A DNA stretch of 64,000 nt from a phage, in the sequence record OZ335964.1. One strand, written 5' to 3'. The notes beneath the pieces were generated by a model that saw only the letters and a list, made by a program, of their open reading frames with translations, ran no database searches and was not told where the DNA came from. Below are positions 8,419 to 36,353 of the stretch, in pieces; position 1 is the stretch's first letter; every line of letters starts with the position of its first letter. Position numbers and translations under genes: made by a program.

Positions 8419-11049
8419 ATGGCAGATTTAAGCAGAATCCAATTTAAACGCACTAGCACTAAAGGCCGTCGACCTGATGCTGGTACGATGAATCCGGGGG
8501 AATTGGCAATCAATCTTGCGGATCAATATCTTCTTACTAAAAATGATTCCGGTGCTATTATCAATTTAAGTTGTCCTCCGGTTTATGACCGTGATGTTAC
8601 AATGGCGGGTAAAGTTAAAGGAAATAATTATATTTTAAGTAAAACCGCTAACTATCTGGAAGATCAGACAGCGCGAGATCTTAACTACTTTGGTGCTTTC
8701 CGTACCAATGGTCTTGATGGTTTTCTCGAACTCACGCTAAACGTTCCTCATTCTTCTGGTGTTCAGCATGGTCGAGGATTTACTTTCCAGTATGGACACA
8801 CAGGAAACCGTGTAGAAACTTATGGTTATAATAAAGAAGGACAAAAAGCATTTAGTTATAAAATGTATCACGAAGGTGATAAACCAACTCCAGGAGAATT
8901 GAACGTCTATAGCAAACAAGAAATTGACCGTATGTTTGTGAAAAACGTTAAAATGTCTGTTCCTTCCGGTGACGCAACTCGTGGTTACTTTAAGATCGCG
9001 ACCGCAATGATTCCGCAGAATGGTCGAATGGCATTTTTACGAATTTACGGCGGAAACGGATATAATGTTAACTCCTACGACCAGGTTGATTTCCTTGAAA
9101 TTGTGATTCGCGGTGGTAATAATAACCCTAAAGGTGTTAGTATTGCTGCATATCGTCGAAATTCTTTGAACGTACATGAGGTATTTGCAATTAATACTTC
9201 CGGTGATAACTATGACATTTATGTTAACTATGGTCGTTACACCGATAACGTTATTGTCGAGTTTGGAAAAACTGTTGATGTTGCATTGACTGTTCATGAT
9301 GTTCCTGAATTTTCTGCGACTAAACCAGCAACCGGAACTAAATTTGATGCTCGTGTTATTACGATGTTCAACACCGAAAACAAAGCCGGAACGTTGATGT
9401 TTGATAATAACTCACAAGCAACCTATGATATTGTGAGCCTTAATAACGTACCAGACAACAATAAAAAATATATGCGTAAATTCCGCAGTCGTGCGGCGGA
9501 AACAATATGGCATGAAACTGTTCAAGGTGATGTGTATCGTTTGGCTACTGGTTCTACCGACCAAAAAGAAGTATTAAAAATTGTTGGTAGTGATGGTTTA
9601 TTTGTCGATAGACTTCATCTGCAAGGCAATAACGCGATTCGTATGTGGCGTCCTACTGGTCGTAGTAACTATTTTGAATATATGGATCAGCGAGATGGTG
9701 CTAATAAGCGTCAAGGTTGGTTTGGCTTTGGTTCTATAGATACTAACGATTTTCAATGGTATAGTGACGAAGGTAAAAACTTTGTTAAGCTAGAAGCAAG
9801 TGGTCAAGTATCTTTAAGTACTGGTGCGACCAAAATTGTATACACTAATGGTCAATATGTAGCTGCCAATTCTGATGCATACCGTATGATCTTTGGTAAT
9901 TACGGTGCATTCTGGCGTAATGACGGCACTAAAGTTTATCTTCTTTCTACGGCTGAAAATGATAAATTTGGTGGCTGGAATACCTACCGACCGTTTATCT
10001 ATAATTTAGTATCTGGAAACGTTGATTTGGGTGGTGATACCACAGCCTCCGCATTGACCTTAGAAGGTGCAAGCAAAACCGCTCGATTTGGTGGTCATGT
10101 TTATACAGGCGGTAACTTACATAATACAGGTCAGTATATAACTATGGAGGCCGGACTTGCTGGTCAATCAATGGATTATATTCGTTTTAACCATTGGGGT
10201 AGTAGCAGCACCGGACGAAATAACATCTTGTATGTTGAAGACAGCAAAGGTCGTCATTTTTCTACCGAACGTTCTTCCACAGGAGCACTTAAAGCTGACT
10301 TTTTAGGTGAACTCGAAGTTGGTGGTAAGCTGACATGGGGTAAGGGTACAGCTAAATCCTCGTTTAACTTACGAGTGTGGGGCAATGATTCCCGTAAACA
10401 AGTGTTTGAATGTGCGGACGAAAGCGGTTGGCATTTCTATACCCAGCGTGCGGGTGGTCCTGGAACTAATGTAATTGAGTTTAACGTAAACGGTAGGATT
10501 ACTGTTCCTGAATTATATGTTGGTACTGCTGCATCAATATCTAAAATCAATGGTGCTTTTGGTGTCGGTACTACTAATGGATTAGGTGGTAGTTCAATTA
10601 CTCTGGGTGATAGTGATACTGGCTTTAAGCAAAATGGCGATGGCAACCTTGATGTTTATGCTAACAACGTTGCAGTAATGCGTTTTACTTCTGGTGCGAT
10701 TACCGCAAACAAACAATTGAACGTATCTGGTCGTGTTAACCCGTCTGATTATGGAAACTTTGATGGTCGTTATATCAAAAAGACCAGAGGATGGACTAGA
10801 ATATGGACGGGTACACTAGGTGGGAATACTCAGACCGGAACATTGCCTCAAGACCTTCGCTACCGTAACGTGTGGATCGTAATGGCTGATGGATTTAAAA
10901 ACTTCTTCCGTTTTGGTGATGACGGTACTTATTATCTGTCTGGTTATGGAGGTTGGATTAAAATGCAACTTCACTCTAGTGGTAAGATCTTTAAAAATAT
11001 TCAAGACCATTATTGCGTTCCTCGCGAAATTTGGGTTGAAAACGAATAA
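8419..11049 (+). CDS. 37: long tail fibre distal subunit gp37 (receptor-binding fibre)
   Basis: 876 aa; conserved N-terminal MADLSRIQFKRTSTKGRRP..GELAINLADQ block; C-terminal ~150 aa divergent, no His-rich T4-type tip. Confidence 0.8.
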   Translation: MADLSRIQFKRTSTKGRRPDAGTMNPGELAINLADQYLLTKNDSGAIINLSCPPVYDRDVTMAGKVKGNNYILSKTANYLEDQTARDLNYFGAFRTNGLDGFLELTLNVPHSSGVQHGRGFTFQYGHTGNRVETYGYNKEGQKAFSYKMYHEGDKPTPGELNVYSKQEIDRMFVKNVKMSVPSGDATRGYFKIATAMIPQNGRMAFLRIYGGNGYNVNSYDQVDFLEIVIRGGNNNPKGVSIAAYRRNSLNVHEVFAINTSGDNYDIYVNYGRYTDNVIVEFGKTVDVALTVHDVPEFSATKPATGTKFDARVITMFNTENKAGTLMFDNNSQATYDIVSLNNVPDNNKKYMRKFRSRAAETIWHETVQGDVYRLATGSTDQKEVLKIVGSDGLFVDRLHLQGNNAIRMWRPTGRSNYFEYMDQRDGANKRQGWFGFGSIDTNDFQWYSDEGKNFVKLEASGQVSLSTGATKIVYTNGQYVAANSDAYRMIFGNYGAFWRNDGTKVYLLSTAENDKFGGWNTYRPFIYNLVSGNVDLGGDTTASALTLEGASKTARFGGHVYTGGNLHNTGQYITMEAGLAGQSMDYIRFNHWGSSSTGRNNILYVEDSKGRHFSTERSSTGALKADFLGELEVGGKLTWGKGTAKSSFNLRVWGNDSRKQVFECADESGWHFYTQRAGGPGTNVIEFNVNGRITVPELYVGTAASISKINGAFGVGTTNGLGGSSITLGDSDTGFKQNGDGNLDVYANNVAVMRFTSGAITANKQLNVSGRVNPSDYGNFDGRYIKKTRGWTRIWTGTLGGNTQTGTLPQDLRYRNVWIVMADGFKNFFRFGDDGTYYLSGYGGWIKMQLHSSGKIFKNIQDHYCVPREIWVENE

Positions 11050-12025: not shown

Positions 12026-12058
12026 AAGGGGAAGCCTTTCGGCCTCCCCTTCTTTTTT
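12026..12058 (+). terminator. rho-independent terminator ending the plus-strand late unit
   Basis: AGGGGAAGCC-TTTC-GGCCTCCCCT hairpin followed by TCTTTTTTAT. Confidence 0.65.
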
Positions 12059-12305
12059 ATTGGCGCATAGAAGCCCCTGAATCACATTTTGACGCTGTAT
12101 GATGAAAACATGTAGCGTACCAGTCATCGGCTTGTTTGTCTTCGTCAGAGAACGCATAGTTTCGTTGTATGCCGTTTTCTACTTTGACCAGTACAATAGC
12201 TGTTTCTGGAAGATCAATCAATCGGACAAAATCACCATCTTCCCACTCTACACGAGCAATATCATAACCCATCTCAAAATAAACAATCGCTTGCTCTAAT
12301 CTCAT
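12057..12305 (-). CDS. hypothetical protein (82 aa), possible DUF2829/Tad2-like fold
   Basis: ATGA overlap with upstream ORF; LEQAIVYFEMGYDIARVEW ... DKQADDWYA pattern loosely resembles DUF2829; unverified. Confidence 0.4.
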   Translation of the reverse strand: MRLEQAIVYFEMGYDIARVEWEDGDFVRLIDLPETAIVLVKVENGIQRNYAFSDEDKQADDWYATCFHHTASKCDSGASMRQ

Positions 12306-12637: not shown

Positions 12638-12970
12638 TTACAGATGAAAACCTGTTACAATTACCGCATCGATCATACCGCTAGGGATAAACGGTTCACC
12701 CTCTTTTATCTCAACTTTGAATTGATGCCATTTCGCTAATACTTCTTCCGGTACACCCAGAGATTCGGCATCTGCTTTAGTTTCATCCATAATCCAACTA
12801 GGCTGCATGAGAGCATAGTTTACATAGTCCATTTCTGGGGTCATGTCATCAATGTTAATATATTTGCAGTTGACGCGTTTCAGAATTTCAAATTCTTTAT
12901 TGTCAACCTGTACCATGTATAATTCAGTAGTTTCTGGAATCAGTTCCCACACAATCAGTACATTTTTCAT
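12638..12970 (-). CDS. hypothetical protein (110 aa)
   Basis: ATG with GAGGTGA SD; tightly packed in early cluster. Confidence 0.5.
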   Translation of the reverse strand: MKNVLIVWELIPETTELYMVQVDNKEFEILKRVNCKYINIDDMTPEMDYVNYALMQPSWIMDETKADAESLGVPEEVLAKWHQFKVEIKEGEPFIPSGMIDAVIVTGFHL

Positions 12971-13572: not shown

Positions 13573-13854
13573 TTATTTTCGGTTGTACTTCTGCCACTTT
13601 CGGTAATACTGCTTGTAAACCTGTTTTGCGTTTTCACCATCTTTACTATACATGTTATCTACCATCAAGTCAATAAGACCTTCCGGTGTCTGGTAGTTCC
13701 CCGCTCGAATAAGTTCTTTAATTAAAGTGTCCTGATGATCTTTGTATACTACGTTAATGATGGTCTTTTCTGCTTTCTTCGTCCCGATCATCCGGTGATT
13801 AGCTTTCATCGCATCCCACCAATCTTTTGTGATCTTCATGTTATTGAATTGCAT
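13573..13854 (-). CDS. hypothetical protein (93 aa)
   Basis: ATG with AGAGGT SD. Confidence 0.5.
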   Translation of the reverse strand: MQFNNMKITKDWWDAMKANHRMIGTKKAEKTIINVVYKDHQDTLIKELIRAGNYQTPEGLIDLMVDNMYSKDGENAKQVYKQYYRKWQKYNRK

Positions 13855-13865
13855 AATTTAACCTC

Positions 13866-14624
13866 TTACTTGCACACGTATTGATCTACATCAATTGCGC
13901 CACCGAATGTAGGATGACGTTTTTCAAATCGAATAGTTCCGTCGTTTGGTTCGAAAACGGAGTATTCATATAGATCTTTCTTGCCAACATTCTTATAAAA
14001 CCCGCCTTTAGTCATAACGGTTTCTTGTACGTTTGCTTTGTGTACGTTGTATTCGTCAATGTATACAAAATCAACCATCTTCCCATTTTTAATGGTTACT
14101 TTAAGATCTCCTGGTTGGTTTCCATATTTTGCATACAGTGGAGCTTCTTTAATTTTGGTGGAAATTCCATCTTTCATACTCCACTCATAACGAACGGTGC
14201 ATTGATAGGTAAAAGTTTCGACCTTCGGTTCTTCCACCACTTTTTCTTCCTGTTTCGGTTGTTCTTCGTCAACCTTCACGGAAGTCTCTGAATCGCTTTC
14301 TGACGCGGTTTCTTCTTTAGGTAATACATTCATCAAGTTTTGGATTTGAGCGTTGTATACAGCCTCCAGTGGCTGAATCTGCCCGATATTGATCATTGTA
14401 TCACGAACAGTTTTATTCCAGTTGCGTTGCTCTTGTTTCAGAGACGGATCAATCTTAACAGCCTTAACATATACTTCATGAAGTTTCGAATCCAGTGCGG
14501 AGATTGACTCATTAGCACAAATAAACTTCTCTGATTTGGTAGTGGCTTTAGCGCAATCAAAGGACGCAGCATTAGCACCGAAAGCAGTAGCAGAAAGAAC
14601 GATAGCAGCGATAATGTTTTTCAT
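13866..14624 (-). CDS. secreted LprI-like protein (signal peptide + DUF1311-like domain + Cys-bracketed C-terminal domain)
   Basis: Track ORF 13866..14687 trimmed to M22 with GAGGA SD; MKNIIAAIVLSATAFGANA signal peptide; FDCAKATTKSEKFICANESISALDSKLHEVY..QRNWNK matches DUF1311 pattern; C-terminal domain bracketed by YQC and YVCK cysteines. Confidence 0.6.
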   Translation of the reverse strand: MKNIIAAIVLSATAFGANAASFDCAKATTKSEKFICANESISALDSKLHEVYVKAVKIDPSLKQEQRNWNKTVRDTMINIGQIQPLEAVYNAQIQNLMNVLPKEETASESDSETSVKVDEEQPKQEEKVVEEPKVETFTYQCTVRYEWSMKDGISTKIKEAPLYAKYGNQPGDLKVTIKNGKMVDFVYIDEYNVHKANVQETVMTKGGFYKNVGKKDLYEYSVFEPNDGTIRFEKRHPTFGGAIDVDQYVCK

Positions 14625-14652
14625 AATATATTCCTCAGTGTTTTGTCTTGAT

Positions 14653-14687
14653 GGGAGTATCTTACTACTCCCCTGTTCTGGTGTCAA
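14653..14687 (-). promoter_or_regulatory. early promoter/stem-loop cassette (PeSL-like)
   Basis: Minus strand reads TTGACA-N9-GGGAGTAGTAAGATACTCCC; -10-like TAAGAT inside a 7-bp inverted repeat; upstream of LprI-like gene. Confidence 0.55.
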
Positions 14688-14882: not shown

Positions 14883-14911
14883 AGTATAGGGGATCGCCGA
14901 TCCCCTGTCAA
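14883..14911 (-). promoter_or_regulatory. early promoter/stem-loop cassette (variant)
   Basis: Minus strand reads TTGACA + 17-nt palindrome GGGGATCGGCGATCCCC + TATACT. Confidence 0.5.
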
Positions 14912-34940: not shown

Positions 34941-36353
34941 TTAGAAAGTCATGTTATTTGCTAGCTCGTCGAGTTTTTCTCGTTTCTCGGCTTGCTGTGC
35001 GCTTTGTGGTTTAACTTGTGCATTCTCCTGATCTGCGATCTGGTTTGGAACTTCATACCAACGCTGATTTCCTTTTTTCACACCAACGTTAAACCGTGAA
35101 TAGTAGTTCTTATCGCCGTAACGAGACTTGATCTGCTTCATGAGTTGAACGCCCATTTTAGCAAGGTCTTCGGTTTCGATAACACCCAACATAAAATCGG
35201 CTGTAGCCGGAAGACCTGCTGATTCAGCGGTATCACTCATGTTAAGGTCTGACGCATCCCAACCCGCGCGGGTAGTCTGTGCCGCAGTCCAACCAACAAC
35301 ATCCCACTTAACAAAAAAACCTCGCAGTTCTTCCGCAATCGCCTTAACTAGTGTGTAACTATTTTCAGAGTATACACGCAAGCGAGACGATGCGCAAATC
35401 CCCAGATAGTCAACAATCACAACATCAGGTTTAAACTGTTTCTTGAGTCGCAATTCATTCATTAACGCCTCAAAGTGATTGGAGTTCGCGCCACCAGTCG
35501 GATACTGCTTGATCATCAATTTTCCAACCGGACGATCTCCGATCTTCTTATTCTTAACACGCTTCATACGTGCGGAATATTCCGCAAAAGAAACATTACC
35601 ATTATCCAATTCATCTAATGTAATGTCAAGCAAGTTTGCGTCAATACGTTTGGCTACGACATGCTCTGCCATCTCCATTGAGATATACAATACATCATAA
35701 CCACATTCCATATAATCCGCAGCAAGAGAACACAATCCAAGCGATTTACCAACATTTACACCAGCAAGCAACACATTTAGCGTTTTTCTTTCCGCCCCTC
35801 CTTTCGTGATTTTATTCAACATCGGCAGCTTAAACGGGATCTTATTCGCTTTAGTCTGATATAGCAAGAATCGTTTTTCAAAGTCATTAAACCAGTCATG
35901 ACCTACATCAGAATCAAACGTAATGGATAGTGCTTCCTGCATGATCTCAGGAATAGCTCCCTCACCCGGCAATTTCTTATTCTGTTTCTCTTTTGGTAGT
36001 TGTGCGTTCGCTTGAATCTCTAGCGCCCGTGACATTGCATTGTACATAGCGCGGTCGCGGATAAATTTTTCGGTTTCCTTCATTAACCAATCAAGGTCTT
36101 CCGGTGTATTCTCCAGCGAATCGAGAAGAGTTTTAGCCCCTTCATATGTTGTCTGATTGCCTCTCTCCTTGTCTAAAGCAATCTGTAATGCAGTTGGCGT
36201 AGGAATGTTGGAATATTCGTCTACGTGCTTTTTAATCAGCTTATAAATCAGTTTTTCTTCGTCTTCGGTGAAGTAGTCCGCTTTAAGATGAGGCCATACA
36301 TTCGTAAAGAATGCGCCATTGTAAATCAACTGTGAAAAGATAGTTTTAATCAT
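34941..36353 (-). CDS. 41: replicative DNA helicase gp41 (DnaB family)
   Basis: 470 aa; Walker A GVNVGKS and DnaB-like blocks; located between uvsX and primase as in T4. Confidence 0.9.
   Translation of the reverse strand: MIKTIFSQLIYNGAFFTNVWPHLKADYFTEDEEKLIYKLIKKHVDEYSNIPTPTALQIALDKERGNQTTYEGAKTLLDSLENTPEDLDWLMKETEKFIRDRAMYNAMSRALEIQANAQLPKEKQNKKLPGEGAIPEIMQEALSITFDSDVGHDWFNDFEKRFLLYQTKANKIPFKLPMLNKITKGGAERKTLNVLLAGVNVGKSLGLCSLAADYMECGYDVLYISMEMAEHVVAKRIDANLLDITLDELDNGNVSFAEYSARMKRVKNKKIGDRPVGKLMIKQYPTGGANSNHFEALMNELRLKKQFKPDVVIVDYLGICASSRLRVYSENSYTLVKAIAEELRGFFVKWDVVGWTAAQTTRAGWDASDLNMSDTAESAGLPATADFMLGVIETEDLAKMGVQLMKQIKSRYGDKNYYSRFNVGVKKGNQRWYEVPNQIADQENAQVKPQSAQQAEKREKLDELANNMTF

Follow-up and report, generated by a model that had tools for sequence, protein, structure and literature searches.

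What a secreted protein with a domain of the LprI lysozyme-inhibitor type does for a virulent phage, and how the two halves of its gene come to have such different histories, are the questions raised by a locus of the phage of sequence record OZ335964.1. We analysed a stretch of 64,000 nucleotides of this record, hereafter the window, in which an open reading frame (ORF) of 252 aa on the minus strand (13866..14624, stop codon included) encodes a secreted protein of the RB49ORF260c family, PHROG 14799. The original prediction, made from the sequence alone, had read this protein as an LprI-like candidate for a periplasmic lysozyme inhibitor or a superinfection-exclusion factor. Our analysis found an LprI-like architecture, borne on a phage and ending in an orphan, allelic β-barrel, and its interest lies mainly in a cassette polymorphism that virulent and temperate phages have in common.

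The source phage is an RB49-like T4-type coliphage of the genus Krischvirus, and over the 2.5 kb around the gene its identity is 98% with Shigella phage JK32 and 94% with RB49. The gene starts with an ATG at 14624 and ends with a TAA at 13868-13866; a ribosome-binding site, GAGGAA (14631..14636, minus strand), was read from the sequence 6 nt 5' of the ATG. It belongs to the hyperplastic region that separates gene 52 (topoisomerase) from the holin gene t, and lies ~2 kb from the latter. The protein is 99-100% identical to those of RB49 and TB34, is labelled 'hypothetical protein' in all the records seen, and is a member of PHROG 14799 (E = 7e-156), the function of which is given as unknown in PHROGs; searches in NCBIfam and PADLOC gave no match. 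A weak DUF1311 match of RB49ORF260c (E = 0.2) had already been listed by Nolan et al. in 2006 (PMC1524935), and in BFVD the entry of the RB49 protein is named 'LprI-like N-terminal domain-containing protein'. Since five phage copies show, over codons 1-103, 4-10 synonymous and 0 non-synonymous codon differences, RB49ORF260c is a real gene under purifying selection.

Two modules joined by a linker make up the protein, behind a signal peptide (aa 1-19, 14568..14624, minus strand), MKNIIAAIVLSATAFGANA, which is followed by ASFDC. The features read from the sequence, namely a basic n-region, a hydrophobic core of 14 residues and A-N-A at positions -3..-1, predict a signal peptidase I (SPase I) cut after ANA, and the junction between A-x-A and ASFDC is kept in the 40%-identical homologues of Klebsiella and Aeromonas phages. 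A lipobox was looked for in the cleavage region, between FGANA and ASFDC, and no L-x-x-C was found, so the protein is not a lipoprotein. The N-module (aa 20-103, 14316..14567, minus strand) is a DUF1311/LprI-N helical domain, near-invariant in the alignment, which scores 24.8 bits (E = 3e-5, aa 24-76) with the Pfam profile PF07007 (LprI/DUF1311), above the gathering cut-off of 22; the match covers profile positions 1-71 of 106, i.e., the first two-thirds only, and was found again in five homologues with 22-30 bits. In an AlphaFold2 model of the full protein, built on a 13-sequence alignment, four helices were predicted over residues 30-100 with a predicted local distance difference test score (pLDDT) of 63-79, and the C-domain came out as all-β with good confidence; a search of the PDB with the N-domain profile gave nothing significant. 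In the N-module Cys24 and Cys36 are invariant, and it lacks the second pair of Cys that longer DUF1311 domains typically have. The acidic linker of ~30 aa (aa 104-133, 14226..14315, minus strand) is predicted to be disordered, with pLDDT <50 at residues 104-132. The C-module (aa 134-252, 13869..14225, minus strand), modelled alone, came out with high scores (pLDDT 91.4, predicted template modelling score 0.83) as a barrel of eight antiparallel β-strands, the first of which contains Cys142 and the eighth of which carries Cys251 at its end, both Cys being invariant in all the alleles and homologues. Every family member has exactly four Cys, two per module, and the conserved pair of each module could, judging from this pattern, form a disulfide. 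The cleavable signal peptide, the DUF1311-like N-terminal domain, the acidic linker and the C-terminal β-domain bracketed by cysteines had all been proposed in the original prediction, and all of them were borne out.

The alignment of the homologues divides the gene sharply. At the protein level, residues 1 to ~130 are near-invariant and the C-domain is variable. At the DNA level, the identity to GEC-3S, JSE and the E. coli copies described below is 95-100% from just 5' of the ATG to gene position ~405, falls to background from this point, at the linker end (~14220 in the window), to the stop codon, and recovers directly downstream. Clustered at 70% identity, the C-domains fall into 8 groups that are 17-58% identical to one another, and belong to two superfamilies, type 1 and type 2, having the first strand alone in common (hhalign probability 4.5% over 22 residues). 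The allele of the window, T1a, is carried by 45 cultured Krischvirus records with 96-100% protein identity; the allele of GEC-3S and phi1 (T1c) was found in 11 records (9 phages), and other alleles in UPWr_E1 and JSE. Copies of the window allele differ from one another at 3-5 synonymous and 0 non-synonymous codons. When related alleles were compared, the proportion of synonymous differences (pS) was 0.64-0.72, meaning that synonymous sites are saturated, and the ratio of non-synonymous to synonymous divergence (dN/dS) was 0.12-0.25, whereas in the N-module of the same sequence pairs the dS was 0.18-0.26. Because synonymous divergence is saturated between the alleles and much lower in the N-module, the C-domain alleles, at least eight and discrete, are old lineages maintained under constraint, and the N-module is either far younger than they are or homogenised by recombination. 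Positive selection on the barrel was considered and found no support in these dN/dS values or in the window allele, which has no non-synonymous changes. The cassette, together with the prophage copies, was missed in the original prediction, and both argue for a polymorphic target rather than for one conserved lysozyme. More distant relatives, in the T4-type phages Klebsiella phage PWKp16 (stretch L008, 2501-3253) and Aeromonas phage AS-sw (stretch L009, 2474-3193), carry the same signal peptide, DUF1311 module and linker, followed by unrelated C-modules with two Cys.

The gene is not confined to virulent phages. One chromosomal copy each was found in 26 of 5426 complete E. coli genomes, with ~96% DNA identity over the first 371-408 nt only. 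At the four loci examined, the gene is the outermost gene of a prophage and adjoins hicA-hicB in 4/4; hicB is annotated as truncated by RefSeq in all three annotated genomes, which suggests that the prophage is inserted in hicB. The prophage loci hold three different alleles between flanks that are ~100% identical, and the neighbouring prophage gene is 90-98% conserved across the three alleles, with no co-variation. Such a moron-like position in a prophage is typical of genes that benefit the lysogen. In the H2 and DEC5A copies, representing two of the three alleles examined, a remnant of 68-80 nt of the 5' end of the downstream Krischvirus gene lies past the stop codon and is 88-90% identical to it (12770-12837 in stretch L005 and 6776-6855 in L011, both of E. 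coli chromosomes). Because this remnant persists, the sequences point to a movement of the gene from a T4-type phage into a temperate phage. In IMG/VR the gene stands at the end of 9 contigs that are 23-36 kb long (alleles T1d, T2b and T1b), and 2 contigs of Krischvirus size have it as well; in a metagenomic contig of 175 kb, with its genes in the order of Krischvirus, the allele is of the T1d type and shares 70% identity with that of the O55:H7 prophage. A virulent phage and a prophage thus share one gene, near-identical in its 5' part and split into deep allelic lineages in its 3' part, and this pattern shows directly that genes flow between lytic and temperate phages inside E. coli, which is of interest whatever the function of the protein.

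Whether the barrel is a lysozyme inhibitor of the MliC/PliC family could be addressed by comparing sequence, fold and motif. According to the work on PhiA, the MliC/PliC fold is a flattened barrel of eight strands, the ends of which are tied by a disulfide (Cys76-Cys154 in PhiA), and the motif SGxxY, on a protruding loop, enters the active site of the lysozyme (PMC8334348). The model of the C-domain shows the flattened eight-stranded antiparallel barrel, but generic barrels score equally well, and Foldseek against the PDB gave nothing at E <= 1e-3. The resemblance to MliC/PliC, as far as a predicted model can tell, is real but not specific. At the sequence level, the Pfam profile of MliC, PF09864, matched neither the full protein nor seven C-domain variants at E <= 10. 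The hhalign comparison with an MliC profile, built from relatives of the E. coli MliC taken from MG1655, gave a probability of 2.8% for the C-domain alignment and 0.8% for the type-2 cassettes, and a PDB sequence search with the full protein found nothing. Read from the sequences, SGxxY is absent from all the alleles; the equivalent loop reads KGGFY, NGAMQY, NGMIVF, KNMVVG, NKNFMKG, HGAKF, HGKTY or FGLKF, of which KGGFY belongs to the window allele, in the β4-β5 loop, and is not conserved across alleles. Since there is no match at the sequence level and no allele has SGxxY, we do not file the barrel as a member of MliC/PliC. Of the LprI-type lysozyme-inhibitor architecture that had been proposed, the order of the domains stood, with PF07007 followed by a predicted eight-stranded barrel; the role of lysozyme inhibitor is a conjecture. 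As a caution for annotation, it is from the N-domain alone that the database name 'lysozyme inhibitor LprI family protein' derives, and this domain is not known to inhibit lysozyme.

Relatives of the barrel outside its own family were scarce. A word-indexed search for relatives of the C-domain returned 2 matches only, and an exhaustive profile search of 1.84 billion representative proteins found the barrel only within its own family; a PKD-repeat protein matched in the same profile search (P0023) was discarded as a repeat artefact. The sole PDB match of the C-domain profile, a PhoU-like protein (E = 0.0012), is helical, which is incompatible with the β fold, and was discarded as well. In BFVD, the barrel model matched a 'lipoprotein' of Erwinia phage Kwan and proteins of Pectobacterium CBB, SEGD1 and A0A482GC65, with template modelling scores of 0.5-0.7 and E from 1e-5 to 2e-3. 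These small secreted or lipoprotein-like barrels of large phages hint, at the level of predicted models, at a wider class of phage periplasmic barrels.

The gene has its own promoter/stem-loop cassette, as originally claimed. An early promoter/stem-loop element named PeSL has been defined as a σ70 consensus promoter that is preceded by an A+T-rich tract and bears a G/C-stem hairpin, located 5' of an ORFan in a hyperplastic region, and the PeSL of RB49/phi1 was shown to work as an early promoter and terminator (Arbiol et al. 2010, PMC2839356). By consensus scan, reading of the sequence and folding energy, we identified such an element at 14653..14687 (minus strand), with a -35 box TTGACA at 14687-14682, a -10 box TAAGAT at 14664-14659 and a 17-nt spacer (10/12 consensus matches). 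The A+T-rich tract upstream of the promoter is AAATTTAAAAAG, and the hairpin GGGAGTA-GTAAGA-TACTCCC, of 7 bp (14672-14653, -11.8 kcal/mol), overlaps the -10 box. All the features of a PeSL, i.e., the σ70 consensus, the upstream tract, the hairpin and the recurrence in the window, were found, and the element is one of a repeated family: the same hairpin GGGAGTA...TACTCCC overlapping the -10 box occurs on the minus strand at 14687, 15693, 59255, 60490 and 61400 (also at 14911 and 23429), with energies of -11 to -21 kcal/mol. In having a canonical PeSL upstream and lying in a hyperplastic region, the gene resembles the PeSL and ORFan cassettes of RB49/phi1 (PMC2839356); in these, however, whole genes are gained or lost between PeSLs, whereas here the 3' part of a gene, from the linker to the stop codon, is replaced.

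The reason why a T4-type phage should express such a protein early can be approached through the periplasmic DUF1311/LprI proteins that we found in the literature, all of which are linked to peptidoglycan glycosidases (PMC7933661, PMC12981562, PMC9796082, PMC12135965). M. tuberculosis LprI, in which PF07007 is combined with MliC PF09864, inhibits lysozyme (PMC7933661); Etsi4 of enterohaemorrhagic E. coli (EHEC) neutralises the periplasm-acting effector Etse4 (PMC12981562); genes with LprI domains adjoin lysozyme-like effectors of type VI secretion systems (T6SS) (PMC9796082, PMC12135965); and ScwA controls the levels of the lytic transglycosylase MltD (PMC7933661). Like M. tuberculosis LprI, the phage protein carries an export signal and has an N-terminal DUF1311/LprI domain followed by a small barrel, predicted to be eight-stranded, with a Cys pair placed to close it; unlike LprI, which is a lipoprotein with a recognisable MliC domain, it has a SPase I-type signal peptide, an acidic linker of 30 aa, no MliC signal or SGxxY, and at least eight interchangeable alleles. 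It also differs from the barrels of MliC, PliC, PhiA and ACP in lacking profile similarity and SGxxY, the latter being absent also from PhiA, which is non-inhibitory in vitro. With the DUF1311 immunity proteins of T6SS, such as Etsi4 and the LprI-domain orphan genes of Pantoea, which have been proposed to neutralise periplasm-acting cell-wall effectors, it has in common the signal peptide, the DUF1311 domain and the occurrence of orphan copies with no adjacent effector. Unlike the T6SS immunity genes that stand beside effectors or are arrayed with them, however, this gene is borne by phages and prophages, has an extra, variable barrel, and no effector is nearby.

On these grounds, namely the DUF1311 literature, the early expression, the export features, the position in the prophages, the discrete alleles maintained as specificity types might be, and the failure to detect Spackle either in the window or at the corresponding site of RB49, our preferred, although tentative, reading is that the protein is an immunity-like periplasmic binder or inhibitor of exogenous peptidoglycan glycosidases, in which the barrel sets the specificity. 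In such a scheme, transcription would start from the σ70 PeSL promoter in the first minutes of infection, and Sec export would deliver a soluble periplasmic protein with two modules on a flexible acidic tether, a constant helical DUF1311/LprI-N module and an exchangeable eight-stranded barrel. Its targets would be peptidoglycan glycosidases entering the periplasm from outside, the candidates being lysozyme-like effectors of T6SS and the lysozymes in the tails of superinfecting phages; recognition of one target variant or another would depend on the barrel allele, and the wall would be protected in the infected cell or, for the prophage copies, in the lysogen.

The comparison with T4 Spackle (gp61.3), the periplasmic inhibitor of the gp5 tail lysozyme, is relevant to this reading. 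Both are small proteins of T4-type phages, early and secreted, and a Spackle-like role of the protein is plausible as a hypothesis; there is, however, no sequence similarity to gp61.3, and Spackle is a helical protein of a single domain. By tblastn, with T2 and Klebsiella-phage Spackle as queries against the window and two RB49 stretches (L001 and L013, ~43 kb in all), we detected no Spackle homologue, whether in the window or in RB49 at the syntenic 61-41 position. The Spackle-like matches were all weak, fell inside the coordinates of genes 41 and 49, and were rejected; that of T2 Spackle, 28% identical over 76 aa (E = 0.012), lies inside the DNA helicase gene 41 (35088-35288 of the window, minus strand; 12826-13026 of L013) and was judged to be due to chance.

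Several observations weigh against an immunity-like inhibitor of glycosidases. Klebsiella Marfavirus phages carry an annotated Spackle plus a DUF1311 protein, the Spackle gene of PWKp16 being 2 kb away, and since these phages encode both, the two proteins are not simple substitutes for each other. The barrel has no sequence-level link to MliC/PliC and lacks SGxxY, and PhiA, the best-matching barrel of the inhibitor type and itself lacking SGxxY, neither bound nor inhibited SagA and hen egg-white lysozyme (HEWL) in vitro (PMC8334348). The LprI/DUF1311 domain of Salmonella ScwA gave no lysozyme resistance (PMC7933661). Moreover, the type-2 cassettes have no detectable homology to type 1, and deeply divergent alleles fit poorly with one conserved target such as the gp5 lysozyme; a polymorphic target accords better with the deep allelism of the barrel than one conserved lysozyme does. 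Finally, no effector-like or partner gene flanks the gene in the phage or in the four prophage loci; the idea of a linked partner was dropped, as the up- and downstream neighbours in the phage vary independently of the allele.

Part of the same evidence can be read differently. A serious rival, to which we give a lower but still appreciable probability, is a factor that excludes superinfecting phages or blocks competitors through some target other than peptidoglycan hydrolases: the variable barrel would bind a polymorphic part of the incoming phage (the tail tip, or its tape-measure or ejection proteins) or an envelope protein of the host that this phage needs, and DUF1311 would be a constant anchor or scaffold. 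The early promoter, the periplasmic features and the moron-like position in the prophages suit it as well, discrete ancient alleles swapped as cassettes in virulent and temperate lineages are the pattern expected of specificity or immunity types, and the further unrelated C-modules on the same N-module in Klebsiella and Aeromonas phages point the same way. This explanation has to do without homology to any known exclusion protein, and PADLOC found nothing; a version of it in which the phage masks its own receptor is unlikely, because the sequences show the barrel allele to be independent of the receptor-binding tip of the long-tail-fibre subunit gp37. The gp37 tip of the window is unique in the collection, yet its barrel is 100% identical to that of RB49; phages whose T1a barrels are identical have gp37 tips that differ greatly; and the gp37 of phi1, a T1c phage, aligns with the query over the same part as do the gp37s of T1a phages, and with about equal identity. 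A wider hypothesis, which we regard as doubtful, would make the gene a polymorphic periplasmic specificity locus, with a constant DUF1311 module and at least eight ancient exchangeable cassettes, in which the allele sets the competitors, phages or rival muramidases, that are neutralised, and the cassette pool is kept common to virulent Krischvirus and a temperate hicB-integrating coliphage by recombination on the conserved 5' sequence, ~400 bp long, and on a short flank at the 3' side. To our knowledge, no periplasmic 'immunity group' system has been described for T4-type phages.

The remaining explanations are less likely. That the protein modulates wall enzymes from within, acting on host lytic transglycosylases in the manner of ScwA on MltD or on the phage endolysin, so that the wall is stabilised or lysis is tuned, seems unlikely to us. 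It draws on the fact that ScwA, a periplasmic LprI-domain protein, raises MltD levels and lyses the cells if overproduced (PMC7933661), and on the vicinity of the holin gene t in the same hyperplastic region; but conserved housekeeping enzymes would leave the eight deep alleles unexplained, expression is early rather than late, and no T-type holin gene was seen in the annotated prophage stretches examined. A binder of small ligands akin to lipocalin, YceI or Cap15, which would sequester a lipid, a muropeptide or a signal molecule of the periplasm, is very improbable: the barrel does match such folds, but at the level of fold only, with 1-12% identity, and divergent discrete alleles would be unusual for a small-molecule pocket. 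We consider least probable a true MliC/PliC-family inhibitor of c-type (animal) lysozyme, that is, a phage version of mycobacterial LprI, with which the protein has the domain order in common; besides the negative profile, PDB and motif searches and the missing lipobox, a virulent phage has no obvious use for blocking an animal lysozyme, and E. coli already has MliC. If, instead, a periplasmic immunity or exclusion factor is the correct reading, T4-type phages would have a second way, unrelated to Spackle, of guarding the envelope of an occupied cell, and the cassette alleles would be natural domain swaps for mapping who excludes whom among coliphages, which is relevant to the design of phage cocktails.

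Three other genes of the window deserve mention. The gp37 gene (8419-11049, plus strand) encodes an unusual mosaic receptor-binding tip: its distal 220 aa, especially at 10380-11046, are ~33% identical to the gp17 fibre tip of T3, T7 and Yersinia phages, and no phage in the collection covers >=80% of its last 299 aa. The 93-aa ORF downstream of the barrel gene (RB49ORF259c family, 13573-13854, minus strand) is also allelic, RB49 being strongly different over most of the gene and JSE near-identical to the window, and this variation is independent of the barrel allele upstream. In the same hyperplastic region, beside the holin gene, an 82-aa ORF (12057-12305, minus strand) matches the Pfam profile of Tad2-like proteins (Thoeris anti-defence 2) with 27.7 bits against a cut-off of 25, and is, on this match, a candidate anti-defence gene.
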